Assembly: GCF_046105845.1 (NCBI RefSeq)
Contig: NZ_CP151004.1
DNA from: Escherichia coli
Lineage (GTDB): Bacteria; Pseudomonadota; Gammaproteobacteria; Enterobacterales; Enterobacteriaceae
Reading direction: 5' to 3' (one strand)
DNA length: 64,000 bases
Shown: positions 3,763-30,727 of the stretch, piece by piece
Numbering within the stretch: position 1 is the stretch's first letter
Layout of the letters: each line of letters opens with the position of its first letter
The notes under the pieces: generated by a model
What the model was told of the DNA's origin: nothing
Database searches by the model: none
What the model saw: the letters and a program-made list of their open reading frames with translations, nothing else
Translations under genes and position numbers: made by a program

Positions 3763-5011
3763 TGTTAGCCTCCACATGCGTCATTGCTGCTGTCGTTTTG
3801 CGATTCAAAATCGGGTTAAGGATCAGATAGCTCAGCGCGCCACCTAATACCGCGTTGACCGGAACAATACCCGGTAACCAGTGGCCTGCGGCAATCCCCA
3901 GCGCGACCGCCAGAATCGCCACCCAATTGACACTCATCATACGCGTGGTCGCAAAGTGCTCATAGCGGCGACGGTTCATCAGATAGTCAGCGATGATCAC
4001 GCCCCCTACCGGAGGAATAGCTGCCGAAAGGAAGGTCAGCCAGCCGACAAAATTGTTATACAGCCATAATGCGCAGACCGTACCGATAATACCGTTGATT
4101 ACCGAAAGGGTTTTGCTCGACATACCAGTAATGTTGGCGAAACCTAAGCCCGACGCATAGAGCGCGTTATCGTTGGTGGTCCAGATATTCAGCCCCAGCA
4201 CCACAATCGCAGGCAGCAGCAGACCCTGAGCAATCATCACATCAGAGATATCCGCCATCCCCAGTGCCGCCGCGCCCGCTGCACCGAAAATAAACATCAA
4301 CGAGTTGCCGAGGAAAAAGGCCACCATCGCCACCAGCACCGCCAGTTTGGCATTACGACCAAACCGGACAAAGTCAGCGGTGAGCGTGCCCGCACTGATA
4401 AATGACCCCACAACCAGCGCCAGCGCGACATTGAAATCTAACGGTTGTGCGGGAACGACCGCTTTTAATGCGTCCAGGCCGCCCATGCCGTTAACGGCCA
4501 ACCACACGGAATAACCGCCAAGACAGGCGATAGCCGGAACTGCAATCACCGAAAGAACCATCAGCGCCGAAATGCCAAAGAAGACGGTGACGGTCATCAG
4601 TAAACCGGAGACGGCAATCAGCAAATTAATATCCAGCCCGGTTGCCTTGCCCACCGGAATGGCAAACATCGCCACGCCAACGCCAAACCAGCCAACCTGG
4701 GTGCCGCCCAGCAGCAGTGAAGGCAGCCATGAGCCTTTAACACCAAAAGAGAAGCGAGCAAGAAGATGAGTGGTCAGGCCGGTTTTTGCGCCAATGTAAC
4801 CAAGAAATGAAGTGTAAATACCGAGGAGAAGATTACCGATGAGGACTGCGAGGAAGAAATCATGATAGCTAAGACCGGTTCCGAGAGTGCCGCCGGTCCA
4901 CATACTGGCGGAAAAGAAGGTTAATCCCAGCATGACGAACGTCAATGCCAATACCCCTTTCCGCGCCGACTGCGGGACTGGCCCTTGGCTAAAGTTGTTA
5001 TCTTGCGACAC
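3752..5011 (-). CDS. codB: Cytosine permease (NCS1 family)
   Basis: 419 aa polytopic membrane protein with GTG start, overlapping the codA start by 11 bp; recognised as CodB. Confidence 0.93.
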
Positions 5012-12964: not shown

Positions 12965-13110
12965 ATTACGGCTCCAGAGTTGTTATCACACTATCACCCA
13001 CCGACATTATTGGGTTGATTAATAATTAGTTCAGTCAGGGCATAAACGCCAGTAACCGGAAATAAGACACTTTGTGATCTCTCTCGCACCCGATTATTTT
13101 TGGTAGAAAT

Positions 13111-13782
13111 ATGATGCAGTTAGTTCACTTATTTATGGATGAAATCACTATGGATCCTTTGCATGCCGTTTACCTGACCGTAGGACTGTTCGTGATTACT
13201 TTTTTTAATCCGGGAGCCAATCTCTTTGTGGTAGTACAAACCAGCCTGGCTTCCGGTCGACGCGCAGGGGTGCTGACCGGGCTGGGCGTGGCGCTGGGCG
13301 ATGCATTTTATTCCGGGTTGGGTTTGTTTGGTCTTGCAACGCTAATTACGCAGTGTGAGGAGATTTTTTCGCTTATCAGAATCGTCGGCGGCGCTTATCT
13401 CTTATGGTTTGCGTGGTGCAGCATGCGCCGCCAGTCAACACCGCAAATGAGCACACTACAACAACCGATTAACGCCCCCTGGTATGTCTTTTTTCGCCGC
13501 GGATTAATTACCGATCTCTCTAACCCGCAAACCGTTTTATTTTTTATCAGTATTTTCTCAGTAACATTAAATGCCGAAACACCAACATGGGCACGTTTAA
13601 TGGCCTGGGCGGGGATTGTGCTCGCATCAATTATCTGGCGAGTCTTTCTTAGTCAGGCGTTTTCTTTGCCCGCAGTGCGTCGTGCTTATGGGCGTATGCA
13701 ACGCGTTGCCAGTCGGGTTATTGGTGCAATTATTGGTGTATTCGCGCTACGCCTGATTTACGAAGGGGTGACGCAGCGGTGA
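13111..13782 (+). CDS. yahN: LysE/RhtB-family amino-acid exporter YahN
   Basis: 223 aa hydrophobic ORF with ATG start; gene order. Confidence 0.85.
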   Translation: MMQLVHLFMDEITMDPLHAVYLTVGLFVITFFNPGANLFVVVQTSLASGRRAGVLTGLGVALGDAFYSGLGLFGLATLITQCEEIFSLIRIVGGAYLLWFAWCSMRRQSTPQMSTLQQPINAPWYVFFRRGLITDLSNPQTVLFFISIFSVTLNAETPTWARLMAWAGIVLASIIWRVFLSQAFSLPAVRRAYGRMQRVASRVIGAIIGVFALRLIYEGVTQR

Positions 13783-13798
13783 GCAGATAATTTACTCT

Positions 13799-14044
13799 CT
13801 ACGTAATCAACCTGATTTGCCGAATCCCGACCATCGGCGATGATAGCCCCCGTAATGCGTGGTCCTTATTTCCGATAAGTTTACTTGAGTCTTTAGCTTC
13901 CCATTTCAGCCCACTCTCCCCTGTGTGGGCTTTTTTCATTGCTCTGACCCGTCCTGAATAGCCAAACAATGGCAATGTTCCACTTTGCAGGGATGATAAT
14001 AAGGGGATCTGATTCAGAAGAGTTTTGAAAAGTTGGACCGCCAT
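13799..14044 (-). CDS. yahM: Small uncharacterised protein YahM
   Basis: Internal ATG of the 91 aa track ORF gives 81 aa MAVQLFKTLLNQ..., matching the recalled length and position of K-12 yahM; no function known. Confidence 0.55.
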   Translation of the reverse strand: MAVQLFKTLLNQIPLLSSLQSGTLPLFGYSGRVRAMKKAHTGESGLKWEAKDSSKLIGNKDHALRGLSSPMVGIRQIRLIT

Positions 14045-14456
14045 CGAGGCCTCGAACCCCGTACCATACAACAATCCTGGTTGTCGTCTGCTCTTCCTGA
14101 TGAGCTAATGGCGGTTTTTGATATGAGCCTTACAGCATATTTTCTGTCAGGCTTGAGTGCGATGCGTAAGATACAGAAAAGACCCCACACAAACATGATG
14201 GAATTATGATTTTTTTCATATGAATGTCAACCCACACATTCACAAAACATCTGCATGAGATCATTTTTTATACACCGTATAGCTGCGAAACCACTGCTGA
14301 TGCTTTTTTAAGCGAAGTGTCGCCGATCACAACAAAATATCGGCGAAAAAGGCGGTGGAATGCCATTTGGCATACGGATATACAGATGAAATGATCACCT
14401 GCTTTGCGATTCACTCTCTGGTGGAATAACAACTCGCAGGTGGACCCCTTTCTGAA

Positions 14457-16650: not shown

Positions 16651-17607
16651 TTAAACCACCCGATCCAGCCCCAACATGCCGCGAGCCTGAATGAAACAGA
16701 GCAGCAACGTTCCCCATAAGGCCATCGTCAGGTAGGGACTTATACCGAGAATATTGAAGCCGCTTTCAATAATTTGCAGAAGAAACAGCGCCAGCACCAT
16801 ACCAATTATCCGCCCGCTGCCGCCGTCCGGATTAACCCCGCCGAGTACTGCCGCGAGGATTGACACCAGCAAGTACGATTCGCCATAAGAGGCCTTAGCC
16901 GAGTTGAGTTTCGACATCATCAAAAATGCCGCTACCGCACAAAGCAAGGCGGAAATGACATACACCCATATCAGCACCCGACGAGTGTTAATACCGGAGT
17001 AAAGTGTTGCTCGTTCGTTAGAACCAATCAGATAAATGGATTTACCGAGCGGCGTTTTCTCCAGCAATATCCACAGCCCCAGCGCCACTGCGGCAAACAA
17101 CCACATCGGTAGCGGAATACCGAACCATTGCGCATGATTCAACCACAGCACCCATGAGGGATAATTGGCAATGGCGCTACCACCTGTCACCAGAATATTT
17201 ATCCCTTTGAGCAACGTCATCATCCCAAGCGTTGCAAGAATTGGCGACACTCGAATACCAGCAATCAATACGCCGTTACATAAACCGATTATCACCGCCG
17301 CGCCAGCGCCCGCCAGTAACGTAGCGACAACCGTAGCAATACCCGGTGGATACTGAGTCGCCACCCACGCCATCACCAGTGAACAGGCGTTAGCAGTGGC
17401 AATAATTGACAAGTTAATGCCACCGCAAAGCATGGTCACCGCCATAGCCAACGCCAGAATGCCCAGCACGGGCATTTGCGAAGCGACGGACTGGAAATTA
17501 CTTATCGACCAGAAAATCTCCGGCATAGTAATGCTGAACGCGGCAACCGTTAGCACCAGCAGGCCGATCAAGTAAAACTCAACGTTATTACGCCACGATT
17601 TTTTCAT
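16651..17607 (-). CDS. Sugar ABC transporter permease (second membrane subunit)
   Basis: Polytopic membrane ORF; ATG at 17607 overlaps the upstream permease stop in an ATGA arrangement (track start 17637 is a GTG extension); final gene of a binding-protein/ATPase/permease/permease operon. Confidence 0.8.
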   Translation of the reverse strand: MKKSWRNNVEFYLIGLLVLTVAAFSITMPEIFWSISNFQSVASQMPVLGILALAMAVTMLCGGINLSIIATANACSLVMAWVATQYPPGIATVVATLLAGAGAAVIIGLCNGVLIAGIRVSPILATLGMMTLLKGINILVTGGSAIANYPSWVLWLNHAQWFGIPLPMWLFAAVALGLWILLEKTPLGKSIYLIGSNERATLYSGINTRRVLIWVYVISALLCAVAAFLMMSKLNSAKASYGESYLLVSILAAVLGGVNPDGGSGRIIGMVLALFLLQIIESGFNILGISPYLTMALWGTLLLCFIQARGMLGLDRVV

Positions 17608-18575
17608 AGCAGACTCCGGTTCTGATGCTGACTCCACGCCGTGGCGCTAATGCTGGCAACGATGATGATGCCTGTGATCAATGTTTGCCAGTAAGACGAG
17701 ACTCCCAATAAATTTAGCCCGTTTTGCATCACTGCCAACAACACCACGCCGAGCAAAGTACCGGTTAACGTGCCGCGCCCGCCGAGCAAACTAGTGCCGC
17801 CAAGCACCACCGCAGCCAGTACTGTCAGCTCATAACCCAGAAGAGAATCGGGGGCGACAGTCATCACCGTCCACGACTGCACTACACCCGCAGCGCCAGA
17901 CATCAATCCCATATAGCCATAGACGAAAAGTTGCAGTTTCAGCACGCTAAAGCCGATGCGACTGGCTGATTCACGATTCCCGCCAAGGGCATAAATTTTG
18001 CGCCCTACACTGGTGAAATTCATGATAAACGCTGTCAGCAGCACCACCGTAATCATGGCGATCAGCGGCAGACCAAGGCCATAGTCATAGCCGTCAGCAT
18101 CGGTGTACTTGAACAACATTATCCCCTGCTCAAACCACGGCGGAAAGTCGTACAGCCACACACCTTTACTCAACCATAACAGCAGGCCATAGAAAATATT
18201 CAGCGTCGAAATGGTGATGATGATAGACGGCACCCGTAGGCGATTAACCAGTAAGGCGTTTATTAAGCCAAGTAAAATGCCGATGCCGCCCGCCAGGGCA
18301 AACGCGACAGCAAAGTTGCCACCAATTTTTTGCAGCAACAGCACCATGCCGTATTGCGCAATGATGGTCATTGCCGGAAACGAAATATCAATCCCACCGG
18401 AAATTAACACCACAAACAAACCACAGGCGAGAATAGTCAACATGGCATAGTTATTGGCGAGATCGTACAAATTACCGAATGTCAGAAACTCGTCGCTGCG
18501 CCAGGCAAGGCCGACAAACAGCCCCACAATCAGTAATGCCAGCCAGAATTCATGGCGTTTTTTCAGTTCAGCCAT
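17604..18575 (-). CDS. Sugar ABC transporter permease (first membrane subunit)
   Basis: 323 aa hydrophobic ORF with ATG start, overlapping the ATPase stop by 8 bp. Confidence 0.8.
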   Translation of the reverse strand: MAELKKRHEFWLALLIVGLFVGLAWRSDEFLTFGNLYDLANNYAMLTILACGLFVVLISGGIDISFPAMTIIAQYGMVLLLQKIGGNFAVAFALAGGIGILLGLINALLVNRLRVPSIIITISTLNIFYGLLLWLSKGVWLYDFPPWFEQGIMLFKYTDADGYDYGLGLPLIAMITVVLLTAFIMNFTSVGRKIYALGGNRESASRIGFSVLKLQLFVYGYMGLMSGAAGVVQSWTVMTVAPDSLLGYELTVLAAVVLGGTSLLGGRGTLTGTLLGVVLLAVMQNGLNLLGVSSYWQTLITGIIIVASISATAWSQHQNRSLL

Positions 18576-20052
18576 TTACCACCTCCGCAATTCTGGCCTG
18601 AGAACTGCTGTCAGGCAGGAAGCTATGGGTGATCTGACCTTTTTGCATTACCAAAATCCGGTGGCTTTGATACCACGCTTCTTCAATTTCATCGCAGATC
18701 ATCAATACCGCAATGCCATGAGCCGCCAGATCGCTGATAATGCCGTATATTCCTGCTTTGTTGGCGATATCAACACCGACTGTCGGGCTATCGAGAATCA
18801 ACAGTCGTGGCCCAATCGCCAGCCATTTGGCGATCGATACTCGCTGCGCGTTACCCCCGGAAAGCGTATTCACCGGGAGATGTGGGTCAGAGACTTTGAT
18901 GGTCAATGCCTTGATTAGCCTGTCCACCAGGTCACGCACTTTAGCTTCACTCAGAAAGCCGAAGCGATCTTTTACCTTGTGAAAAACAGTGCTAATGATG
19001 TTGTCTTCAATAGATTGCGCCATCACCAAACCGCGCGACATGCGATCTTCCGAAACATAACCAATACCGTGGCGGATGGCGTCCTGGTTACTATGCAGTG
19101 TAACCGGCTGACCGTTGATGAGGATCTCACCAGCATCCGGTCGGGTCATACCAAACAGACTCAGACATAATTCCGTGCGCCCCGCACCAAGCAGGCCAAC
19201 AATCGACACCACTTCGCCCGCTTCCACCCGCAAGTTAATATTTTGATATTCCCCCTGACGACTTAAATTACGCACCTCCAGCACCCGGGTGCTGGATTTT
19301 CCCTGCCACAACTCTCGCACCTGATATTCAAACTCCTGGCCGGTCATCAGGAAACCGAGTTGTTTTGTGGTCATCTCTGCAGCCGGAAAGGTCCCGACCA
19401 GCTCACCATCTTTCAACACTGAAATACGGTCGGAAACTTCCATCACTTCTTCCAGACGATGACTGACGAAGACCACGCAGATCCCGCGTTCCCGCAATTG
19501 ATGCACCACCTGTAATAACCCTTGCACTTCCTGATGGGTCAGCGAAGCGGTGGGTTCATCCATCACGATCAACCGTGCGTCCTGCGCCAGTGCACGGCAA
19601 ATTGCCACCAGCTGACAGCGGGCAATTGAAAGCTCAGAAACGAGCGTATCCAGTGGCAATGTGACGTTAATACTGGTCATTGCCGCCTGCGCCACCTCAC
19701 GCAGACGACGGCGGTTAACAAACAGACCGTGGTGATAGTGATTCACGGCGATATTCTCCCAGACACTCAGGTTAGGAAATAAAGAGAGGTCCTGATAAAT
19801 CACCTGAATCCCCTGCGCCACCGAAGCGGCGGGTGTCAGCTTTGACCAGTTTTTCCCACCAAGCGTAATTTCCGCCCCCTCATCCGGGCGATAAACACCG
19901 GACATAATTTTAATCAACGTCGATTTACCACAGCCGTTTTGCCCGGCAAGGCAGTGCACCTCACCCGACATAAAGTCGAGAGAAACATCGCGCAGCGCTC
20001 GCGTGGCATGAAACGTTTTGTTGATATGACGAAGGGAAAGGAAGGTTTCCAT
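18568..20052 (-). CDS. Sugar ABC transporter ATP-binding protein (tandem nucleotide-binding domains)
   Basis: About 494 aa from the ATG at 20052 (METFLSLRHINK...); two Walker A-type motifs (GQNGCGKST and GLLGAGRTE) and an LSGGNAQR signature, typical of ribose/galactofuranose/AI-2-type importer ATPases. Confidence 0.85.
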   Translation of the reverse strand: METFLSLRHINKTFHATRALRDVSLDFMSGEVHCLAGQNGCGKSTLIKIMSGVYRPDEGAEITLGGKNWSKLTPAASVAQGIQVIYQDLSLFPNLSVWENIAVNHYHHGLFVNRRRLREVAQAAMTSINVTLPLDTLVSELSIARCQLVAICRALAQDARLIVMDEPTASLTHQEVQGLLQVVHQLRERGICVVFVSHRLEEVMEVSDRISVLKDGELVGTFPAAEMTTKQLGFLMTGQEFEYQVRELWQGKSSTRVLEVRNLSRQGEYQNINLRVEAGEVVSIVGLLGAGRTELCLSLFGMTRPDAGEILINGQPVTLHSNQDAIRHGIGYVSEDRMSRGLVMAQSIEDNIISTVFHKVKDRFGFLSEAKVRDLVDRLIKALTIKVSDPHLPVNTLSGGNAQRVSIAKWLAIGPRLLILDSPTVGVDIANKAGIYGIISDLAAHGIAVLMICDEIEEAWYQSHRILVMQKGQITHSFLPDSSSQARIAEVVNG

Positions 20053-20100
20053 AGCATCCCCTGGCAATAAGAATCGGGGCTTTCGCCCCGAAGAAATGGA

Positions 20101-21087
20101 TTAATAAAGTGAGTCGATATTGTCTTTGTTGACCAGTAATACCTTATGGAAACGGATAATTCGCTTATCCATATCTACGTCGGCCTTACCGAGATTCTCC
20201 ATTTCTAATCCAGGTTTGATCTCTTCACCCTTCAGCAACGTGCTGGCGACGGCCGCGAGTGCGTAACCTGCAGAGGCCGGATCGTAAGTAATCCCTTCAG
20301 TGATATCACCACTTTTAATCAGTGATGCCGCCTGTGAAGGGATCATCATGCCATAGACTGCGACTTTATTTTTCGCCCGTTTCTCTTTCACTGCACGTCC
20401 CGCGCCAATCGGACCGTTTGAACCAAAGGAGACAACCGCTTTCAAGTCAGGATAGGTTTTCATCAGGTCCAGTGTGGTTCGACGTGAGTCATCCACACTC
20501 TCGGCAACCGGCATGCGGCGGGTAACTTCATGCATATCCGGGTAATGCTCTTTCTGGTATTTCACCAGCAAGTCAGCCCATAAGTTATGCTGCGGCACGG
20601 TCAAACTACCCACGTAAATCACATAGCCGCCCTTGCCACCCATGCGTTTCGCCATATGCTCAACATATTCAGCGGCAAATTTTTCGTTATCAATGATTTC
20701 GATATCCCAGTTAGCACTTGGCTGACCGGGGGATTCGTTGGTCAGAACCACAATTCCGGCATCTCGCGCTTTTTTGAATACCGGTTCCAGCACGTTGGCA
20801 TCGTTTGGCACAATTGTAATTGCATTAACCTTACGGGCGATTAAATCCTCAATGATTTTAACCTGTTGCGGAGCATCAGTACTTGAAGGCCCCACCTGTG
20901 ACGCATTAACACCAAAGGCTTTACCCGCCTCGACCACACCTTCGCCCATGCGATTAAACCAAGGCATACCATCGACTTTAGAGATATTCACCACGACTTT
21001 TTCCGCTGCCTGGAGCGGCGCAGAAATTAGCGCAGCGCCTAATAACAGCGAAGACACCATATTGATAACAAAACGTTTATTCATCAT
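20101..21087 (-). CDS. Periplasmic sugar-binding protein of ABC transporter
   Basis: 328 aa ORF with signal peptide (MMNKRFVINMVSSLLLGAALISAPLQA) followed by a periplasmic-binding-protein fold typical of monosaccharide/AI-2 binders; first gene of the transporter operon. Confidence 0.8.
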   Translation of the reverse strand: MMNKRFVINMVSSLLLGAALISAPLQAAEKVVVNISKVDGMPWFNRMGEGVVEAGKAFGVNASQVGPSSTDAPQQVKIIEDLIARKVNAITIVPNDANVLEPVFKKARDAGIVVLTNESPGQPSANWDIEIIDNEKFAAEYVEHMAKRMGGKGGYVIYVGSLTVPQHNLWADLLVKYQKEHYPDMHEVTRRMPVAESVDDSRRTTLDLMKTYPDLKAVVSFGSNGPIGAGRAVKEKRAKNKVAVYGMMIPSQAASLIKSGDITEGITYDPASAGYALAAVASTLLKGEEIKPGLEMENLGKADVDMDKRIIRFHKVLLVNKDNIDSLY

Positions 21088-21337
21088 TTCAGCCTCATTG
21101 CAGGGTAGTCAGGAAGTGTTCGCCCAAATTAGCGCGCTGGAGAGAATAAGAATTTTCGAATATTTTTATGCAGAATAAACAGCCCTATTTCAGGCAGCTA
21201 TTAAAAATTTGGTTATAAATATGGACAAAACGGGCAGAAACAATAAGTGTGACAATCATCACGTAAAAAATAGCAAAATAAACAAAATTAGCGATACTTT
21301 ATGTTTGTGAGCTTATTTCGCGTAGAAAAATAGTTAT

Positions 21338-21748
21338 CTACACAACGTCAATAAGGGCATATTCTTCAAAGATAACGTCCATTTCGGGTGAATAGTATCC
21401 TTCTGCCTGGAAAAAACGACGGTGTTCATTACGCCAATATTCAAGACTGAGGTCACCTTCACCTTCCTTACGGGCAAGCTCCGCGGTGACATCAGAAAAG
21501 CGCAGTAAATGCAGGCCAATCACTCTGATAACACAGACAGGCTCACCACGGCTATTTTCTACAATCTTATACTCACCAATCATCGGAAATGCGTTGTCTT
21601 CAATACATCCCGCCAGCGAACCACAGGAAGCTGTTTTAACACCAGTCGCAATCAACGTTGCGAGGTGATCGGCCAACGCTGCTGAATCGCCAAAAGTACA
21701 AAAGGAAGCATGGGGATATTTTTGTGAGATTTTTTCTTTTATGGTCAT
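21338..21748 (-). CDS. ASCH-domain-like small protein (uncharacterised)
   Basis: ORF track start 21778 is a TTG; ATG at 21748 gives about 136 aa MTIKEKISQKYPHASFCTFGD...; the ASCH call is from recalled similarity only; sits upstream of the ABC transporter on the same strand. Confidence 0.5.
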   Translation of the reverse strand: MTIKEKISQKYPHASFCTFGDSAALADHLATLIATGVKTASCGSLAGCIEDNAFPMIGEYKIVENSRGEPVCVIRVIGLHLLRFSDVTAELARKEGEGDLSLEYWRNEHRRFFQAEGYYSPEMDVIFEEYALIDVV

Positions 21749-22047: not shown

Positions 22048-23430
22048 TCAACCTGCCACACTCCCCCACACCAGTTGTCCTTTATGGAACGTTGCCGTTC
22101 TCGGCGAGATACGCGCCACCGCCTCGGCGGAACAGGAGGCGTCCACCAGCACAAAACTGGCGTCATCCTGCGCTTTGGGCCACACGCGCTCGCCTTTTTC
22201 ATTCAGCGGCAATACATCGCCAGTGGCTAAAAACAGCGAACGGGACAAATTCTGTTCGTTAGGGCGAATATAGAGCTGCGCGTACAGATTGGCTTTTTCC
22301 AGCATGTCGCCCAGGCCGTAAGGTGACCAGTGGTCGATAACGCTGTCAGTTCCTGTCATGACTTTTACGCCTTTGTCGTGCAGTTGTTTGAGCGGCATAT
22401 GCAGCGTGCCAATCGGCACCGTCGAAGCGATAGAAATTTGCTGCGCCGCCATCCGGTGCGCCAGTTCATCTACCTGTTGTTCGTTGAGCGTTGCCAGCGC
22501 GAAGGCGTGGCTGATGGTCAGCTTGCCCTTCAGCTGTGGCGTTTTCTCTACCGTTTCAACCATATAGTTGATGGCTGCCACGCCTGCCGGAGTGGTTTCG
22601 TGCAGGTGAATATCGACGCCTTTGTCGTAGTCCAGCGCAATCTGGAACATGGTGTCGAGGGATTTTTCCATCGCGCCATCAACACTGGTTGGGTCCAGCC
22701 CGCCGACGTAATGCGCCCCCGCCTGCATCGCTTCGCGCATTAAGGGTTCTGATTTCGACAGCAGCAAACCGTGCTGCGGGAAGGCGACAATTTCACACTC
22801 GAAGCCCGCCTGACGTCGCGCCAGCACCGCCTGCAAATTTTGCAGATTTTTCAGGCCGGAAACCGGTTCGATATTGCAGTGGCTGCGGGCAATGGTAGTG
22901 CCTTTCGACTGCAATAAATCGATCAGTTTTTCCGCTCGTTCCTGAGTGTACGGTTGCAGCTCCGGCAGCATTTTCTGCTCGAGTTTGATCATGTCCTGGA
23001 TGGTGGTGCCTGCCGGGCGATTGAGCGAGCGCCACGGCCCGCCGTAAAAGGTTTTGTCGAGATGAATATGCATGTCACGGGTGGTGGGCAGCATCAGCTT
23101 ACCGCCAGCGTCATAGTGCGGCAGCGTGGCGTCCGGATGCTGCTTGTTCTCGCGCAGGGCAACAATTTTGCCGTTCTGAATCTCTACGGTCTGGTGCGCC
23201 GTGCGGGTCTGTACCGCCACGCCATTTTCGTAGTCAAAACCGGTTTCCAGCAGCACGTTGTCGAGATAGTAGTGCGGGTCAGTGATTTTCATGGTGTTAT
23301 TCGCGTCGCAGTGGGTTGTGCCAGAGACTGCCGCATGGGCGAGCGGCACAGAGGTACCAAACAGCGCGGCGGCGGTGACCATCTTACCGCTCTGGCTCAG
23401 AAACTCACGGCGGCTATTGTTTTTTTTCAT
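22048..23430 (-). CDS. yahJ: Amidohydrolase-family deaminase YahJ with Tat-type signal peptide
   Basis: 460 aa ORF with ATG start; N-terminal SRREFL twin-arginine motif followed by a hydrophobic stretch and AHA cleavage-like site; metal-dependent hydrolase motifs (HIHLD). Confidence 0.9.
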   Translation of the reverse strand: MKKNNSRREFLSQSGKMVTAAALFGTSVPLAHAAVSGTTHCDANNTMKITDPHYYLDNVLLETGFDYENGVAVQTRTAHQTVEIQNGKIVALRENKQHPDATLPHYDAGGKLMLPTTRDMHIHLDKTFYGGPWRSLNRPAGTTIQDMIKLEQKMLPELQPYTQERAEKLIDLLQSKGTTIARSHCNIEPVSGLKNLQNLQAVLARRQAGFECEIVAFPQHGLLLSKSEPLMREAMQAGAHYVGGLDPTSVDGAMEKSLDTMFQIALDYDKGVDIHLHETTPAGVAAINYMVETVEKTPQLKGKLTISHAFALATLNEQQVDELAHRMAAQQISIASTVPIGTLHMPLKQLHDKGVKVMTGTDSVIDHWSPYGLGDMLEKANLYAQLYIRPNEQNLSRSLFLATGDVLPLNEKGERVWPKAQDDASFVLVDASCSAEAVARISPRTATFHKGQLVWGSVAG

Positions 23431-23439
23431 CTTACGTCC

Positions 23440-24390
23440 TTACGTTTTAATAATATGGGTGCCCGTTTCGCCACGCAGCGCCGCGGGCAGGCATTCCGGC
23501 GTGGTGATAATCACTTCTTTACCGCCCTGTTCCAGGAACGTCAGGCTGGCGATGATTTTTGGCAACATGCTGCCAGGCGGAAAATGCCCTTCCTGCATAT
23601 AGCGGGTCATGGTGGCAATATCCACCCGATCCAGCGCCTGCTGCTGCGGTTTGCCAAAGTGAATACACACTTTTTCGACGCCGGTGGTGATCACCAGAAT
23701 GTCGGCGTGAATTTCACGGGCCAATAGCGCGGTAGAGAGATCTTTGTCGATAACCGCGTCCACACTTTGGTAATCTCCCGCTTCGGTGCGCACCACAGGA
23801 ATTCCGCCGCCGCCCGCGCCAATCACCACAAAGCCTTGTTGGATCAGCGCCTTAATGGCCGGTGCTTCGACAATACGTTTCGGTTCCGGCGAGGCGACCA
23901 CGCGGCGATAGCCCCGTCCGGCATCTTCAACAAAACGCCAGTCAGGGTTTGCCTTTTGTAATTCGTCACGCTGGCTTTCACTAAAGAATGCGCCGATGGG
24001 CTTGGTGGGATGGGCAAACCCCGGATCGTTTTTATCCACTTCCACCTGAGTCACCACGGTGACGGCTTTTTTCTCGCCGTGACGCGCCAGTCGGTTATTC
24101 AGCGCCTGTTGGATCAGATAGCCAATGCCGCCTTGCGTATCCGCCACACAGTTCGCCAGCGGCGTTAAGGGCAGCCCTTCGCGCTCGTGGGCTATCTCCG
24201 CGCGGCGTAAATCCAGACCGACCTGCGGCCCGTTGCCGTGGGTCAGCACAATGTCGTAATCGGAAGCCAGCATTTCCAGCACCGTATCGGCCACGGCTTT
24301 CACCGCCTCCGCCTGATGCTCAATCGACTGGCTGGCGTTATCTTTGATAATGCTGTTGCCACCAATGGCAACGACCACAAGTTCTTTCAT
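23440..24390 (-). CDS. yahI: Carbamate kinase-like protein YahI
   Basis: ORF track gives 374 aa from an upstream extension; ATG at 24390 gives 316 aa MKELVVVAIGGNSI... with the amino-acid kinase fold characteristic of carbamate kinases. Confidence 0.9.
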   Translation of the reverse strand: MKELVVVAIGGNSIIKDNASQSIEHQAEAVKAVADTVLEMLASDYDIVLTHGNGPQVGLDLRRAEIAHEREGLPLTPLANCVADTQGGIGYLIQQALNNRLARHGEKKAVTVVTQVEVDKNDPGFAHPTKPIGAFFSESQRDELQKANPDWRFVEDAGRGYRRVVASPEPKRIVEAPAIKALIQQGFVVIGAGGGGIPVVRTEAGDYQSVDAVIDKDLSTALLAREIHADILVITTGVEKVCIHFGKPQQQALDRVDIATMTRYMQEGHFPPGSMLPKIIASLTFLEQGGKEVIITTPECLPAALRGETGTHIIKT

Positions 24391-24484
24391 GTTGTTATGT
24401 CCGCTACAGAGGGTGATGGGGTTATGAGAGTGAGGTTGCCCCTCTCCCCAGAAGGGAGAAGGGATCGTAAGGTGCGTTTGCAGG

Positions 24485-25903
24485 TCAGACGCCGTAACGT
24501 TCGCACCAGCCAAGAATGGCTTTTTCGAAGCAGGCGAATGGTGGATGCACAATGCCCGCGCCAATCATGCCGACGCCCGCATCTTTATGGGCGATGGCGG
24601 TGTTGATCACTGGCAGAATGCCGCTACTGCCCACGCGGGTGATGTCGATTGCCGACGGCACGCCCATAAAACCGAGCAGCGGAATGGTGACGTTGGGGTT
24701 TTCACCGAGAGTGATTTCACGCATCTGGCGGGAGAAATCGATAGCCTCTTCCACCGTGCCGCCCACCAGCGCAACGATTGCAGGCGCGGTCGCCATGGCA
24801 AATCCGCCAATGCCGTAGGTTTCAGTGATGGCGCTGTCGCCGATATCCAGCCCCGAATCTTCCGGCTTATAACCGGCAAACATCGGCCCGATCACCTGCT
24901 GCGCCGGACCGGTAAACCATTGCCCCGGTAATCCGCTGACCCGCAGGCCGAACTCGACGCCGTTACGCGCCATGGTGGTCACCACAGTGCTGTATTCGAT
25001 GCCGTGCGCCGCATCCATCGCCGCTTTACACATCGCCATCCACGTCGGGCCGGAGAAGTAGTCACTGCTGGCGACAAACTCAAACACTTCGCGCTGTTGC
25101 TCGACGGAGTAGCCCGCCTGAATAATCCCCGGCGTCAGCGCCTGAATCAGCAGCGTCGTCCCGGCGTTATTGCGGTTATGGCACTCATCGCCCATATGCA
25201 GCGCCTGCGCCAGCATTAAGCGCAGATCGATCTCGCCGATAATTTTCATCGCATCGCGCAGCATGGGCCCCTGCACATCGCGCATCCAGTTGAGGCGGTC
25301 GATCACGCTCTGGTCGTTAGCGCCCATACGCAAAATCTTCGCCATCTGCTCGCTCATATTGGTGTAAGCGATGTTGCCGTAGGTTTTGTTTTTCACGATG
25401 TGCATAAACATCGAGGCCGAGGTAACACCCGCCATCGATCCCACACAGTCGTGTTCATGGCACGGCGAGAAGGTGATCTCCCCGGAGGCCGCCAGGTCAG
25501 CCGCCTCGTCGAGATCTTTCGCCAGCCCTTCGAACACCAGCGCCCCGGTGACCGCGCCTTTCATTGCGCCGCACATTTTTTCCCAGGTCACTGGCGGCCC
25601 GGCGTGAAGAATGGTTTTCGGCGTCATTCCCGGCACCACGTTAATCGCCTGATCAAAACCAATCAGCACCGGATGCGACTGGATAATGCGCTCCAGCGCC
25701 TGCTGGTTAGCGGCGGCGATTTTGTCCGCCAGCGGGGAATCGGCAATGTTGTCCAGCGCCTGCACCACCTGCATATTGCCCTGCCCCGGCGGCGTCCAGT
25801 CGAGTTGAGTCACTTCTACATGCTGCTTTTTCAGGTCATCGCTAAACATGGCGATGCCGACGTTAATAACGTTCAATGGTTGGCTAAACAGTGACTGGCT
25901 CAT
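24485..25903 (-). CDS. yahG: DUF1116-family protein YahG
   Basis: 472 aa ORF with ATG start overlapping the yahF stop (ATGA); gene order as K-12 yahEFG. Confidence 0.88.
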   Translation of the reverse strand: MSQSLFSQPLNVINVGIAMFSDDLKKQHVEVTQLDWTPPGQGNMQVVQALDNIADSPLADKIAAANQQALERIIQSHPVLIGFDQAINVVPGMTPKTILHAGPPVTWEKMCGAMKGAVTGALVFEGLAKDLDEAADLAASGEITFSPCHEHDCVGSMAGVTSASMFMHIVKNKTYGNIAYTNMSEQMAKILRMGANDQSVIDRLNWMRDVQGPMLRDAMKIIGEIDLRLMLAQALHMGDECHNRNNAGTTLLIQALTPGIIQAGYSVEQQREVFEFVASSDYFSGPTWMAMCKAAMDAAHGIEYSTVVTTMARNGVEFGLRVSGLPGQWFTGPAQQVIGPMFAGYKPEDSGLDIGDSAITETYGIGGFAMATAPAIVALVGGTVEEAIDFSRQMREITLGENPNVTIPLLGFMGVPSAIDITRVGSSGILPVINTAIAHKDAGVGMIGAGIVHPPFACFEKAILGWCERYGV

Positions 25904-27450
25904 CAGGCTTCCTCCCCTTTGCAGATAAATTCACGCGCCAGCAATCCGGTATTGGTGCTACTGCTGGCCAGAGTCACTCCGGCATCAAGCAGCATCTGGC
26001 TTTGTTGTTCTAATGATGGCGTATCAAGATCGGTACCCAGCACATAGGCGAGAATGATCAACTCACGTCCTTCGGCAGCGGCGATCGCTTTCGCCTCTTT
26101 GATCGCCTCGATGGTGGAACCGACCGGATCTTCATGCGATCCAAATCCGAGCACAAAATCCATCACGATCACCGCCACTTCTGGATCGCGCGCCTCTTCG
26201 ATCAAGCGGCTGATACGGTTGGTCGGGTCAATCATTGGATGCGGCTTGCCGTTGGTGAAGTCGTCATCGCCAAAGTCGAGGAAGGTGTGTTTGATGCTGC
26301 GGTTGATATCTTGCAGGCGGAATTCAGGATCGGGCTGAATATTGCTGTAGACATCGCCATGTTTTTCCATCACCGCGAACATGGTTTCGTCACACAGCGT
26401 ACCGCCGCAGAACAGGCCACGAATGTATTTCTGCTGCGGTTGCAGGCGAGCGCGCACGTCAGCAATCAACGACTGGTTCAGCGTATGCAGCTCGAGATGT
26501 TCCTGTTTCACGCCGGAGAGCATCACCGCTTTCAATGCCGCCTCTTTACTGCCGCGGGCAAACTGTAGCCCCTGCTCATCCACTGGCGTTTCGCCACGAC
26601 CGAGGAAGCAGACCACCACCGGCTTGCGGCAGGCACGTGCGCGTTCCAGCACTTTGCGGGCCACCGCAGGCGCAGGCGGTTTGGAGATAAGCACAATGAT
26701 TTCAGTTTGCGGATCGTTTTCCAGCATCCCGATGGCGTCGAGCATCATCAGGCCGCCGATTTTCTCGCTCAGGTCGCGCCCGCCGGTGCCAATCAGTTGC
26801 GAAACGCCGCCGCCAAATTCATGGATACGGACGCTCAGCTCCTGGCTGCCGGTGCCAGATGCGCCAACAATACCGATGTTGCCGCGACGCACGGCGTTAC
26901 CAAAGCAGAGCGCCGCGCCGTTGATAATCGCCGTGCCGCAGTCTGGCCCCATCATCAGCAGCCCTTTTTCGTGGGCCAGTTGTTTGAGCGCCAGTTCATC
27001 TTCAACTGAGACGTTATCGGAAAACAGCATCACGTTAAGATCGTTTTGCAGTGCCTGACGCGCTTCGCGAGCAGCAAACAGACCGTTGACCGAAATCACC
27101 GCCAGGTTACTTTCCGGGATATGCTTTTTGGCGCTGGCAATAGTGGCGTAACGCGCCTCGTGCGAGCCGCTTTGCGCTTTGGTGTTGAACAGTTCTTCAA
27201 TCTCCACCAGCAACTGCTCGTTGTCTGCGCCCGCTTTGCCGTTAATGACAATCATCAGGTCGCCGTTTTTCGCCTGCTCCAGCTCCGGCGTCAGCAGCCC
27301 TAAATTCTTCAGTACGCCTTTGTTCATTTCGGTCGCCATCGCCACAAATGCCTGCTCGACGCCGTCGAGTTTATTTGCACGCGTGGAGATAGACATCAGC
27401 GAGACAGAATCAAAATAGGTATTCGGTTTAATGACTATTTTAACTGACAT
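25903..27450 (-). CDS. yahF: CoA-binding / succinyl-CoA-synthetase-like protein YahF (FdrA paralog)
   Basis: 515 aa ORF with ATG start; CoA-ligase alpha-subunit-like glycine-rich motifs. Confidence 0.88.
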   Translation of the reverse strand: MSVKIVIKPNTYFDSVSLMSISTRANKLDGVEQAFVAMATEMNKGVLKNLGLLTPELEQAKNGDLMIVINGKAGADNEQLLVEIEELFNTKAQSGSHEARYATIASAKKHIPESNLAVISVNGLFAAREARQALQNDLNVMLFSDNVSVEDELALKQLAHEKGLLMMGPDCGTAIINGAALCFGNAVRRGNIGIVGASGTGSQELSVRIHEFGGGVSQLIGTGGRDLSEKIGGLMMLDAIGMLENDPQTEIIVLISKPPAPAVARKVLERARACRKPVVVCFLGRGETPVDEQGLQFARGSKEAALKAVMLSGVKQEHLELHTLNQSLIADVRARLQPQQKYIRGLFCGGTLCDETMFAVMEKHGDVYSNIQPDPEFRLQDINRSIKHTFLDFGDDDFTNGKPHPMIDPTNRISRLIEEARDPEVAVIVMDFVLGFGSHEDPVGSTIEAIKEAKAIAAAEGRELIILAYVLGTDLDTPSLEQQSQMLLDAGVTLASSSTNTGLLAREFICKGEEA

Positions 27451-28303
27451 AATTCCCTCCGTAGGTTTGGCTCAGCGCACAACCATCGGCCATGCCATAC
27501 AGCATGTCGCAGCCGGAACTGGAGCCAATATGTTTAATTTTTTCTATTGCCTGAGTTGCGTTCCCAGGGATGTCATAAATAATGTTATGAATAAAACGAT
27601 GAATATTTTCCCGGCAGCGTTGTTGTAATGCGGCTTCCAGCGTTATGGCACTTAATAACGTGGTATTATTTCTGCCGCGTTGCAGACCGAGATAAAATTC
27701 CTCTTTGTATTTTTCCGCCGGATGTCCGGAAATAAATAAAATAAGCGCCAGACCTGTTAAATAATCGTCGGCTGATGGCGTAAGGCCAATCCCTAAGCCC
27801 ATCATACTGGCGACTGCTGAGGCGATATTTTGTTTATCGTTTACGGCCTGAATAACTGCCCGTCGTTTAATATGTAATTCTTTATTTAACGCCTGATAAA
27901 ACGGATTATCGCCGCAATAATTAAACAGGGTTTCATTTTCCCCCAGGTGCTGATGAATAATGTCATGCCACTGTTGCCAGGCGATAAGGTGAAAATTCAC
28001 AGCGGTCATTTGCAAGGTTGGGGACAGCCAACGCCGACAACGACTCATCTCTATATGAAGATGTTGACCAACCGTAATGCCTTGATCGTCAAACTGAACC
28101 TTATCACCATGCCGGAACAGACCATCAAAGTGAGTGAGTGCCAACCGACAACTGTTTGGCGCATTGTCATACTCTTCACAAAGCAGCGTCAGCAACTGCT
28201 GGCGGGCCGGAAGTGCGATATTTACCGCTCTGGCAAAGACCTGTTCAACCTGTCCTTGCCCCCGCTGTGCCAGAAAATCCGCATCCGCAGTTAGCGCCCA
28301 CAC
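27440..28303 (-). CDS. yahE: Uncharacterised protein YahE (YlbF paralog)
   Basis: 287 aa ORF (GTG start in track) overlapping the yahF start by 11 bp. Confidence 0.8.
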   Translation of the reverse strand: MWALTADADFLAQRGQGQVEQVFARAVNIALPARQQLLTLLCEEYDNAPNSCRLALTHFDGLFRHGDKVQFDDQGITVGQHLHIEMSRCRRWLSPTLQMTAVNFHLIAWQQWHDIIHQHLGENETLFNYCGDNPFYQALNKELHIKRRAVIQAVNDKQNIASAVASMMGLGIGLTPSADDYLTGLALILFISGHPAEKYKEEFYLGLQRGRNNTTLLSAITLEAALQQRCRENIHRFIHNIIYDIPGNATQAIEKIKHIGSSSGCDMLYGMADGCALSQTYGGNYVS

Positions 28304-28342
28304 ACACCGTCTTTCTGGTGTGTTGATAGCAAGCCTCCCGGT

Positions 28343-28948
28343 TTATGCACCTGCGGCAATCAGTAACTGTGCAATCTCTTCAAAGCCTCGTTCCCGCGCC
28401 AGTTCCAGCGGCGTTTTGCCATATTTATCCGTCATGTGCGGGCTGGCACCGTGTTCCAGCAATAACTGGACAATCGCCTGCTGTTTAATCCCGCCATCAT
28501 TAAGCACAATTGCTTCCAGTAGCGGCGTCCAGCCAACATGGTTGGTCTGGTTAACGTTAATCTCCGTATGCGCCAAAAGCTCTTTTACAATACTTAAATG
28601 GCCTTTTTCACAGGCAGGCGTCAGGCCGACACCGCCAAAACGGGTGACGCAATTAAGATCAGGTTTAGCCGGTAAAATAATCCGTAACAGGGTTAAATCG
28701 CCGGTCAGGCAGCTAATTAAAAAAGGATTTGAACATATTTGATCTTGCTTATTAATATCCGCTCCGGCATCAATTAATGCCTGAACGCAAGCATATTGCT
28801 GATATAAACTTGCCAGCGTAATTGCCGTTTTCCCCTGACGATCGCAGGTATTAATATCGACACCCAGCGCAAGGCATGTTTTTACTTTATCGATATCACC
28901 CTGTTGCGCAGCCAATAAATAGTCGGCAGGTAGATTTTTTATAGTCAT
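28343..28948 (-). CDS. yahD: Ankyrin-repeat protein YahD
   Basis: 201 aa ORF with ATG start; repeated ankyrin-like motifs (GxTPL...A...G-hydrophobic-LL..GA). Confidence 0.88.
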   Translation of the reverse strand: MTIKNLPADYLLAAQQGDIDKVKTCLALGVDINTCDRQGKTAITLASLYQQYACVQALIDAGADINKQDQICSNPFLISCLTGDLTLLRIILPAKPDLNCVTRFGGVGLTPACEKGHLSIVKELLAHTEINVNQTNHVGWTPLLEAIVLNDGGIKQQAIVQLLLEHGASPHMTDKYGKTPLELARERGFEEIAQLLIAAGA

Positions 28949-29205
28949 TCACATTCCCCTGGTTTTTGTGGCTGTTTTCGATGAATTGAGAATAGCAACG
29001 ATAATCTGATAAAAGAACCCGCTTAAATTTAATTCGCCGTATTTCGCCTTTTTGTTGAATGATGTTCAACAATCTTTTCGCAGTGTGCGGTAGTGCAATA
29101 TTTGTTTCTTTGACCCGATACCCTTTCACTCAATCAGGTTTTATTTCTCTATAGTCTGCACATGTAAGAGTAGCTTTCGTCCATGTCTAACCAGAGGGGA
29201 ACAAG

Positions 29206-29703
29206 ATGAACGGACTCACGGCAACGGGTGTCACCGTCGGTATTTGTGCAGGGCTTTGGCAGTTAGTGTCTTCACATGTCGGGCTCTCTCAGGGATGGGA
29301 ATTATTAGGAACTATTGGCTTCGTCGCCTTTTGCAGTTTTTATGCCGTAGGCGGCGGTAAATCGGGGTTTATCAGAAGCCTGGCGGTTAATTATTCTGGG
29401 ATGGTGTGGGCGTTTTTCGCCGCGCTGGCTGCCGGTTGGCTGGCCTCGGTGAGTGGATTGTCCACGTTCTGGGCGAGCGTGATTATGACTGTACCCTTCT
29501 CGGCGGTGGTGGTCTGGCAAGGACGTTTCGGTTTATTGTCTTTTATTCCCGGAGGCTTTCTCGGCATGACGCTATTTTTTGCCAGCGGGATGAACTGGAC
29601 GGTGACATTACTGGGTTTTCTGGCGGGTAACTGCGTGGGGATAATTTCAGAATATGGCGGACAAAAATTAAGCGAAGCGACGACTAAACGCGACGGGTAT
29701 TAA
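29206..29703 (+). CDS. yahC: Small inner-membrane protein YahC
   Basis: 165 aa hydrophobic ORF, ATG start with GAGGGGA ribosome-binding site upstream. Confidence 0.85.
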   Translation: MNGLTATGVTVGICAGLWQLVSSHVGLSQGWELLGTIGFVAFCSFYAVGGGKSGFIRSLAVNYSGMVWAFFAALAAGWLASVSGLSTFWASVIMTVPFSAVVVWQGRFGLLSFIPGGFLGMTLFFASGMNWTVTLLGFLAGNCVGIISEYGGQKLSEATTKRDGY

Positions 29704-29794
29704 AAGTTATTCAAAAATGATTATCTATCTTTAACCGATACCTCTACAGTCATGGCTGGAGAAATTCATATTCGATAATGGCGGGAATGGTTTA

Positions 29795-30727
29795 ATGAAC
29801 TCAATTTTTACCGAAGAGAATCTGTTGGCATTTACTACCGCTGCGCGTTTTGGCAGCTTCAGTAAAGCCGCAGAAGAGTTGGGTTTAACCACTTCCGCCA
29901 TTAGCTACACCATCAAGCGAATGGAAACAGGGCTGGATGTGGTGCTGTTCACTCGCAGTACCCGAAGCATTGAGTTAACGGAGTCCGGGCGTTATTTTTT
30001 CCGCAAAGCTACCGACCTGCTGAATGATTTTCACGCCATCAAACGCAGCATCGATACTATTTCGCAGGGTATAGAAGCACGGGTGCGCATTTGTATTAAC
30101 CAACTGCTTTATACGCCCAAACACACCGCACGCTTATTACAGGTACTGAAAAAGCAGTTTCCAACCTGCCAGATTACCGTGACGACCGAAGTGTATAACG
30201 GCGTCTGGGATGCGATTATTAATAATCAGGCGAATATTGCTATCGGCGCGCCCGACACACTGCTGGACGGCGGCGGCATTGATTACACGGAGATTGGCGC
30301 AATTCGCTGGGCTTTTGCTATCGCCCCGGATCACCCATTAGCCTTTGTGCCGGAGCCGATCGCCGAAAGCCAACTGCGTCTCTATCCTAATATCATGGTG
30401 GAGGACACCGCGCATACGATTAATAAAAAAGTGGGCTGGTTGCTGCATGGGCAGGAGTCGATTCTGGTGCCAGATTTCAACACCAAATGTCAGTGCCAGA
30501 TTTTAGGTGAAGGAATTGGTTTTTTGCCGGATTACATGGTCCGTGAGGCGATGGCGCAATCCCTGCTGGTTACCCGACAAATCCATAATCCGCGCCAGGA
30601 TTCACGCATGTTACTCGCAACTCAGCATTCTGCTACGGGTCAGGTGACGCAGTGGATTAAAAAACAATTTTCGCCAAATGGCATATTAACGGGGATCTAT
30701 CAGGATTTACTGCATCGGGAGAATTAA
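29795..30727 (+). CDS. yahB: LysR-family transcriptional regulator YahB
   Basis: 310 aa ORF with ATG start and N-terminal LysR HTH (FTTAARFGSFSKAAEELGLTTSAISYTIKRME). Confidence 0.9.
   Translation: MNSIFTEENLLAFTTAARFGSFSKAAEELGLTTSAISYTIKRMETGLDVVLFTRSTRSIELTESGRYFFRKATDLLNDFHAIKRSIDTISQGIEARVRICINQLLYTPKHTARLLQVLKKQFPTCQITVTTEVYNGVWDAIINNQANIAIGAPDTLLDGGGIDYTEIGAIRWAFAIAPDHPLAFVPEPIAESQLRLYPNIMVEDTAHTINKKVGWLLHGQESILVPDFNTKCQCQILGEGIGFLPDYMVREAMAQSLLVTRQIHNPRQDSRMLLATQHSATGQVTQWIKKQFSPNGILTGIYQDLLHREN

Follow-up and report, generated by a model that had tools for sequence, protein, structure and literature searches.

The yah cluster of Escherichia coli: a conserved, probable sister system of the AllFGH transcarbamylase and its carbamate kinase, with a predicted Tat-exported deaminase

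The window analysed here is a 64,000-nucleotide (nt) stretch of the E. coli contig NZ_CP151004.1, and the subject of this report is the yah gene cluster within it. Six intact open reading frames (ORFs), all on the minus strand, fill positions 22048-28948 in the order yahD-E-F-G-I-J. The first gene, yahD (28343-28948), encodes a cytoplasmic ankyrin-repeat protein of 201 amino acids (aa). It is followed by yahE (27440-28303, 287 aa), yahF (25903-27450, 515 aa) and yahG (24485-25903, 472 aa, the most conserved gene of the cluster), which encode subunits of the AllH (DUF2877), AllF/FdrA (succinyl-CoA-synthetase-alpha-like) and AllG (DUF1116) families, respectively. A carbamate kinase paralog is encoded by yahI (23440-24390, 316 aa) and a metal-dependent amidohydrolase of the cytosine-deaminase/AtzC clade by yahJ (22048-23430, 460 aa). 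Across a divergent control region of 257 nt (28949-29205), which separates yahD from yahC, two genes lie on the plus strand and together span 29206-30727: yahC (29206-29703, 165 aa), encoding a DUF1097 inner-membrane protein (Pfam, 3e-26), and yahB (29795-30727), encoding a LysR-type regulator.

The first-pass annotation described the six genes as co-directional with overlapping or tight boundaries, and the coordinates confirm this: yahD and yahE are 39 nt apart, yahE overlaps yahF by 11 nt and yahF overlaps yahG by 1 nt, yahG and yahI are separated by 94 nt and yahI and yahJ by 9 nt. The widest spacer (24391-24484) holds merely its 94 nt and a GC-rich 11-bp hairpin (24439-24463, minus strand), and in K-12 it carries REP23/“yahH”. 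The hairpin gains no significant stability over shuffled sequence (z-score -1.3) and also lacks a U-tract, so it is not a terminator. A promoter/terminator scan found no minus-strand terminator-like site within the cluster, although it returned nothing above shuffle expectation and missed a known weak promoter region too. An enterohaemorrhagic E. coli transcriptome and ribosome-profiling study handled yahDEFGIJ as an operon, and the six genes probably form a single transcription unit.

All six proteins match their K-12 counterparts over the full length, at 96.5-99.2% aa identity, and the RefSeq annotation of the best-matching genome lists the identical gene set. The 11-kb region has matches in 5215 of 5426 complete E. 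coli genomes (best identity 99.1%), and at least 80% of its length is covered in 4959 of them. The ratio of nonsynonymous to synonymous substitution rates (dN/dS) against K-12 is 0.02-0.13 across the eight genes from yahB to yahJ, indicating purifying selection. The cluster had been called cryptic, a term that therefore cannot be taken to mean decaying. Values of dS against K-12 are 0.15-0.20 in seven genes and 0.06 in yahE alone; these are high for E. coli and suggest a divergent Escherichia lineage or recombination inside the region. The yah genes still belong to the E. coli y-ome, without an assigned phenotype.

Pfam and NCBIfam profile searches upheld the domains assigned earlier to YahD, YahE, YahF, YahG, YahI and YahJ. 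YahE matches AllH (PF11392, formerly DUF2877; 3.6e-28) and found no match among solved structures. YahF combines CoA_binding (2e-11) and Ligase_CoA (1e-31) domains and scores 492 bits on the NCBIfam FdrA subfamily model, above the cut-off of 433, while YahG matches AllG (PF06545, formerly DUF1116; 6e-89). YahI covers the whole carbamate kinase profile PRK12352 (650 bits) and reaches 348 bits on arcC (TIGR00746). The first-pass annotation had named yahE, yahF, yahG and yahI as paralogs of ylbF, ylbE, fdrA and a carbamate kinase gene of the allantoin region. All four relationships are real, with the partners in shuffled order; the right pairing is yahE with ylbF (AllH), yahF with fdrA (AllF), yahG with ylbE (AllG) and yahI with ybcF (AllK). 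Against the K-12 proteins, YahF is 39% identical to AllF over 513 residues (E=3e-102), YahG 45% identical to AllG (E=3e-118), YahE 25% identical to AllH (E=3e-9) and YahI 38% identical to AllK/YbcF (E=2e-56).

This paralogy is informative because AllF, AllG and AllH were purified in 2024 and identified as the oxamic transcarbamylase (PMC11326118), a new kind of transcarbamylase, which makes the Yah proteins directly testable. YbcF/AllK is a catabolic carbamate kinase (PMC9843812). FdrA by itself has no activity and AllF functions with AllG and AllH; allFG without allH gives partial activity, AllH being required for full activity (PMC11326118). Neither of these papers mentions the yah genes. 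Two features support a single multi-subunit enzyme in this family. Representatives include F-G fusions of ~1000 aa. In addition, a segment of ~45 residues that closes AllF in the all system opens YahG in the yah system (pairwise search: 29% identity, E=5e-8). The segment lies at 25745-25903 in the window (YahG residues 1-53) and at 17180-17348, the AllF C-terminus, in the all-operon record used for comparison. The N-terminal part of further representatives of ~800 aa could be an H subunit. The carbamate kinase gene sits in the same operon, 94 nt downstream of yahG, and Yah is probably a sister system of AllFGH and AllK.

Is Yah simply a second copy of the allantoin enzyme? When one genome per species was scanned, 80 loci from Enterobacterales and Aeromonas came to light with YahG 86-99% identical, and the order yahB, yahD-(E)-F-G-(X)-I-J, where parentheses mark genes that may be missing and X is a permease gene considered below, is kept in all 80 species. 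Seventy of these loci are complete and form the basis of the presence/absence counts. Neighbouring genes led to more distant clusters in Brevibacillus, Neobacillus, Trichococcus, Jeotgalibaca, Enterococcus faecalis, Janthinobacterium, Bosea and Pasteurella. From Firmicutes to Proteobacteria, G subunits of the Yah type share 68-83% identity with YahG and among themselves, against 45-48% with AllG, so the Yah proteins are not orthologs of AllFGH within one subfamily. AllG and a third E. coli paralog, from the tkt1 island of strain APEC O1, are each 45-48% identical to all other G subunits. The solved E. faecalis structure 3clq is 70% identical to YahG versus 46% to AllG (653 versus 379 bits). 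In a library grouped at 50% identity, one representative stands for the full-length Yah type, the next identities are at most 49%, and ~570 further clusters follow with E values up to 1e-30. By these comparisons the Yah-type genes are a separate, widespread orthogroup. In Trichococcus collinsii the Yah-type cluster is flanked by a triple RidA/RutC-domain protein (12971-14239) and a single-domain one (1533-1910), which hints that a reactive enamine or imine may be made in that version of the pathway.

Within the orthogroup, yahE is the fastest-evolving gene, its orthologs showing a median identity of 55%. Of the 70 complete loci, 21 lack it, and it is absent in Enterobacter, Leclercia, Lelliottia and Aeromonas. 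The ankyrin gene is a steadier companion. The presence of an ankyrin protein in such an operon had been flagged as unusual; YahD is indeed an ankyrin protein by its Pfam Ank matches, yet it is no oddity, being a conserved partner of this orthogroup. Full-length orthologs (55-68% identical) occur in Brevibacillus, Janthinobacterium and Pasteurella. In Bosea, Neobacillus, Trichococcus and Jeotgalibaca the equivalent place is taken by an Ank-TPR fusion, beside allF/allG-type genes every time, whose ankyrin half is 34-36% identical to the entire YahD. YahD accompanies F and G in nearly every Yah-type cluster examined, the single exception seen being the E. faecalis locus. This pattern suggests that the Yah enzyme could include YahD as a subunit or scaffold. 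In a separate expression-library screen, a UTI89 fragment carrying yahD, yahE and part of yahF was 17-fold enriched among filamentation-causing clones (PMC6206680).

YahJ, the product of the last gene of the operon, matches Pfam Amidohydro_3/1 and scores 716 bits on NCBIfam PRK06846. Its nearest solved structures are of the AtzC type (6nbo, 4e-44; 2qt3, 3e-30), followed by cytosine deaminases (CodA, 1e-16 to 1e-20), and it is 25% identical to the CodA encoded in the window. Residues H121, H123, Q219, H275, E278, H308 and D362 align with the CodA catalytic set. We take these to be the metal ligands (the H-x-H pair, a further histidine and the aspartate), the catalytic acid of an H-x-x-E/D motif, another histidine and a substrate-binding glutamine. 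The positions are invariant in an alignment of nine homologs (CodA of the window, 2479-3762, and eight others), with E or D at 278. Because the metal-ligand, acid and glutamine positions of CodA are invariant, it is very probable that YahJ works as a deaminase or aminohydrolase on an amidine-type carbon. Its scores stay below the cut-offs of all characterised equivalog models, with 103, 83 and 70 bits on cytosine deaminase models that require 438, 483 and 403, and it scores 20 bits on the guanine deaminase model; the models it passes are uncharacterised “amidohydrolase” subfamilies only.

The clear twin-arginine motif (SRREFL) noticed earlier at the start of YahJ is present and conserved. Read from the sequence, residues 1-33 (23332-23430, minus strand) form a twin-arginine translocation (Tat) signal peptide, MKKNNSRREFLSQSGKMVTAAALFGTSVPLAHA, followed by AVSG; its parts are the twin-arginine motif S-R-R-E-F-L-S, the hydrophobic core GKMVTAAALFGTSVPL and the A-x-A site A-H-A. 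An RR-x-F-[LIM] motif occurs in 81 of 81 PRK06846-type relatives that bear an N-terminal extension, down to 44% identity, including those of Pasteurella (48%) and Shinella (44%). No signal peptide was found in the Gram-positive Trichococcus copies or in the Bosea sister-subfamily protein. YahJ is among listed Tat substrates as a prediction, and deletion of yahJ gave a mild defect in an infection model of extraintestinal pathogenic E. coli (ExPEC; competitive index 0.70, p=0.02) (PMC7549933). Searchable literature yielded no direct localisation data, and YahJ is predicted to be periplasmic. The cell would thus hold a cytoplasmic (CodA) and a predicted periplasmic (YahJ) member of one deaminase group.

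Gene linkage ties this enzyme to the cluster. In all 75 of the Enterobacterales and Aeromonas loci that extend far enough, yahJ directly follows yahI. YahJ-type genes with 36-48% identity also lie beside transcarbamylase genes in Pasteurella and in Trichococcus (as two tandem signal-less copies), and a sister subfamily of YahJ is adjacent in Bosea. In the Brevibacillus and Neobacillus clusters, a small deaminase of the cytidine deaminase (CDA) fold takes the place of YahJ. Two unrelated deaminase folds have thus been recruited into the same cluster, an argument for deamination as part of the pathway.

Most relatives carry a further gene. Permease X, a 516-aa membrane protein, is encoded between yahG and yahI in 55 of the 70 complete loci. 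Escherichia, Kluyvera, Klebsiella, Raoultella and Pseudocitrobacter have no copy of it in their chromosomal clusters. Its distribution mirrors that of yahC: 15 loci have yahC and lack X, 55 have X and lack yahC, and no locus has both or neither, although the underlying events are few and phylogenetically non-independent. This exclusivity could reflect replacement of one transporter by another, or two versions of the cluster spreading separately. X is 64-85% identical across phyla, and some sources name it a xanthine/AzgA-type permease; single-sequence and profile searches against Pfam, NCBIfam and the PDB gave no match. Its predicted model is of medium confidence (pLDDT, the predicted local distance difference test, 65) and resembles BicA, SVCT1, UraA, SLC26 and AZG1/2. 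X may therefore adopt the 7+7-transmembrane UraA/SVCT/SLC26/AZG fold, which cannot tell a nucleobase carrier from an anion carrier. Other relatives additionally carry an allantoin-type NCS1 permease and PucR regulators, which point to purine- or ureide-type substrates. The earlier idea of an N-heterocyclic substrate gains support from these relatives, with their UraA/AzgA-fold and NCS1 permeases, PucR regulators and alternative deaminases.

X is also found on mobile elements within E. coli. It occurs in 142 of the 5426 genomes, at 106 plasmid and 46 chromosomal places. On an IncF plasmid (NZ_JBVWEU010000002.1, 41096-49529) it belongs to a second yah-like cluster, flanked by insertion sequences, with the order LysR-Ank-AllH-FdrA-YlbE-X-carbamate kinase and without yahJ. 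Such a mobile copy fits the 122 plasmid matches at 80-90% identity to the 11-kb region.

YahB, the divergent LysR protein proposed earlier as a candidate sensor, is conserved alongside the operon: a LysR gene adjoins the cluster in 75 of the 80 species. YahB is 38% identical to AllS (E=7e-72), a paralogy absent from the first-pass annotation. Among NCBIfam models it scores best on AllS, where its 268 bits fall short of the 372 required, and on PunR; by identity and score YahB is a paralog of AllS and not AllS itself. The control region holds three blocks conserved in an 18-genus alignment. The first is a palindrome, ATTGTTGAA-N5-TTCAACAAa (29051-29073), of the LysR-type T-N11-A form; the second, upstream of it, is a box TTGCACTACCGCACA (29084-29098); and the third, GTTGCTATTCTCAAT (28985-28999), is a possible -10 region. 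The box showed no convincing fit by eye to CRP, NtrC or sigma-54 consensus sequences, for which no scan was made. The palindrome occurs once in the window and is absent from the K-12 all region, which would fit a YahB-specific operator. YahB probably activates the operon, and papers on transcription factors merely list it as an uncharacterised LysR protein.

How might these components work together? We propose a pathway in which a deaminase, a phosphorolytic transcarbamylase and a carbamate kinase act in turn on an amidine- or guanidine-type N-heterocycle or ureide. YahJ would fold and take up its metal in the cytoplasm before export by the Tat system, and in the periplasm it would deaminate or deiminate an amidine- or guanidine-type compound (an N-heterocycle or acyl-guanidine), giving ammonia and a ureide. 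As YahJ is predicted to be periplasmic and YahDEFGI have no signal peptides, a transport step is required, and the ureide would enter the cell through the UraA/SulP-fold permease X in most relatives, Escherichia carrying the DUF1097 protein YahC instead. YahF, YahG and YahE, with YahD probably as an extra subunit or scaffold, would then convert ureide and phosphate to carbamoyl phosphate and an amide or amine, and YahI would use carbamoyl phosphate and ADP to yield ATP, CO2 and NH3. The phosphorolysis and kinase steps draw on homology to experimentally characterised paralogs, and the deamination step on conserved catalytic residues and gene linkage; uptake, the role of YahD and the substrate we only infer. 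For the explanation as a whole, including the single operon and the kinship with AllFGH and AllK, we estimate a probability of roughly 0.55.

That the cluster is under purifying selection and present in 4959 of 5426 genomes supports a working pathway. Several observations weigh against this proposal. The change of compartment calls for transport, and the dedicated permease X is missing in Escherichia. A ring product would first have to be opened to expose a terminal carbamoyl group, and the cluster has no evident enzyme for this. YahE is missing in 21 of 70 loci, yet AllH is needed for full AllFGH activity, although its loss fits the partial activity of allFG without allH in the paralog. YahJ orthologs (78-83% identical) stand alone in Shewanella and Xenorhabdus, and the Janthinobacterium cluster and plasmid-borne E. 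coli copies have no deaminase. Finally, K-12 mutants lacking allF, allG or allFGH form no oxamate when given allantoin (PMC11326118), so that in this setting yah is silent or leaves oxalurate unused.

The main rival follows from the same paralogy. It holds that Yah is a second oxamic transcarbamylase (oxalurate + Pi -> oxamate + carbamoyl phosphate), orthologous to an enterococcal/streptococcal oxalurate/parabanate pathway and fed by something other than allantoin, with YahJ supplying oxalurate or parabanate from a precursor that bears an amino or imino group. According to references 21-23 as cited in PMC11326118, an oxalurate-induced oxamic transcarbamylase was measured in the species E. faecalis. 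The E. faecalis locus examined is of the Yah type, with a PucR gene next to AllH-AllF-AllG. The Carnobacteriaceae relatives Trichococcus and Jeotgalibaca are also of the Yah type, and anion carriers, oxalate and sulfate transporters among them, also resemble permease X in its modelled fold. However, the enterococcal enzyme assayed in the past was never tied to these genes, and the K-12 mutants produced zero oxamate despite an intact yahEFG, a result that non-expression could explain. An identity of 45% and the differing accessory genes suggest diverged specificity. We regard a second oxamic transcarbamylase as unlikely, if still the strongest of the alternatives.

A slightly less probable alternative uncouples YahJ from YahDEFGI, making it a periplasmic deaminase in its own right, which would obtain ammonia from an amino-heterocycle outside the cell and just happen to lie last in the operon. 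The stand-alone orthologs, the Shinella case in which YahJ pairs with permease X only, the clusters of the plasmids and Janthinobacterium that lack YahJ and a predicted compartment different from that of the other enzymes are all consistent with independence. They are countered by the adjacency to yahI in 75 of 75 loci, with a gap of 9 nt here, by the recurrence of the linkage in Pasteurella, Trichococcus and, through a sister subfamily, Bosea, and by the recruitment of another deaminase fold into the same clusters in bacilli.

It is more doubtful that the Escherichia cluster is a silent evolutionary remnant that lost its permease and, in K-12, gained REP elements. The missing chromosomal X, which Escherichia shares with Kluyvera, Klebsiella and Raoultella, the K-12 REP23/“yahH” at the position of X and the y-ome status of the genes would agree with such a history. 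Six intact genes with dN/dS of 0.02-0.13 in a region found in 4959 of 5426 genomes would not, nor would the conserved promoter/operator blocks, the constant presence of yahC in X-less versions and the in vivo fitness cost of yahJ deletion (PMC7549933).

That YahF is a true acyl-CoA synthetase, the cluster activating an organic acid with CoA and performing no transcarbamylation, is very improbable: the CoA_binding and Ligase_CoA domains, a weak similarity to succinyl-CoA synthetase alpha (72 bits) and the RefSeq product name “acyl-CoA synthetase FdrA” speak for it, but AllF is a transcarbamylase with AllG and AllH while FdrA alone is inactive (PMC11326118), the linkage to a carbamate kinase gene is constant and the cluster has no succinyl-CoA synthetase beta-type subunit.

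The proposed three-enzyme pathway can be placed beside known systems. Like AllFGH and AllK of the anaerobic allantoin (oxamate) branch in E. coli, Yah combines the same three families and then a carbamate kinase in one operon, next to paralogous LysR regulators (YahB and AllS). Unlike the all genes, which run F-G-H, the yah genes run H-F-G, with the F/G boundary moved by ~45 residues, and they add an ankyrin gene, a predicted Tat-exported deaminase and, in relatives, a permease; the putative operator sequence differs, and yah does not replace AllFGH in the K-12 mutants. AtzC and CodA give the best structure matches of YahJ, and the catalytic residues aligned with CodA are identical, but both lack the Tat signal that YahJ bears.

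In the arginine and agmatine deiminase pathways (ArcA/ArcB/ArcC/ArcD and AguA/PtcA/AguC/AguD), a deiminase hydrolyses off a C=NH/NH2 group and leaves a ureido compound, a transcarbamylase phosphorolyses its carbamoyl group and a carbamate kinase forms ATP, with a dedicated transporter. The predicted logic of yah is the same, YahI belongs to the ArcC kinase family and most clusters include a putative transporter. The yah deaminase, however, has an amidohydrolase TIM-barrel or CDA fold in place of the ArcA fold and is predicted to be periplasmic in Proteobacteria, and the transcarbamylase would be of the three-subunit AllFGH type and not of the ornithine or aspartate transcarbamylase type. Pfam and NCBIfam searches found no domain of the ornithine/aspartate transcarbamylase fold or of the ArcA type in the six Yah proteins. 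The likeness is one of pathway logic, a functional analogy in which carbamate kinase alone is homologous. A more ambitious version of our proposal, which we put forward only tentatively and consider unlikely in full, is a widespread, horizontally mobile, ATP-yielding “deiminase pathway” for cyclic or acyl guanidines or amidines. It would combine deamination outside the cytoplasm by the Tat-exported enzyme, X as an uptake carrier of a UraA/SulP-fold type not classified before, and a four-component transcarbamylase with YahD as an obligatory subunit. Candidate substrates in that version would be products of guanine oxidation (guanidinohydantoin/iminoallantoin, or oxalyl-guanidine on the way to oxalurate/parabanate), creatinine-like compounds and cytosine- or triazine-like rings.

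Other cassettes resembling AllFGHK also combine the core genes with another upstream hydrolase and a nucleobase-type permease, as in the ExPEC tkt1 island and beside biuret/triuret hydrolases in nitrifiers (PMC3349570, PMC12625717), and they point to modular use of this family for nitrogen-rich ureides. The tkt1 set differs from yah in forming a third orthogroup (G subunit 46% identical) and in having neither an ankyrin protein nor a Tat deaminase. In APEC O1 (NC_008563.1, 4320779-4327992) this cassette comprises a BiuH-like cysteine hydrolase (280 bits), DUF2877, FdrA, DUF1116 and carbamate kinase genes, and continues with a protein resembling the allophanate hydrolase C-terminal domain, a CodB-like permease and a LysR gene; from its gene content it looks like a biuret/allophanate-type ureide module.

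The yah genes are already known and annotated. They encode a system of a recently defined kind, distinctive for its ankyrin protein, its predicted Tat-exported deaminase and the unclassified permease of its relatives. The cluster is a dense block among the remaining E. coli genes of unknown function, present in ~91% of complete genomes and across the Enterobacterales, with mobile plasmid copies. Its function would add a route of substrate-level phosphorylation for nitrogen-rich compounds in gut bacteria, and might reveal the genes of the classical enterococcal oxalurate pathway. If YahD does prove to be an obligatory subunit, it would represent a rare enzymatic role for bacterial ankyrin repeats.

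The surroundings of the cluster differ from those in K-12. Between yahJ and yahK lie an ASCH-domain gene (21338-21748, minus strand) and a four-gene ATP-binding cassette (ABC) transporter of the ribose/autoinducer-2 type, with its binding protein at 20101-21087, its ATPase at 18568-19971 and its permeases at 16651-18575. This block (16651-21748) is absent in K-12, which retains just a 38-aa ASCH remnant. The ASCH gene and transporter were considered as the missing uptake system and rejected, since they show no linkage to yah in any other genus. The codBA genes, for cytosine permease and deaminase, lie at 2479-5011, ~18 kb from yahJ, and cynR and cynTS sit in the corresponding part of the best-matching genome.

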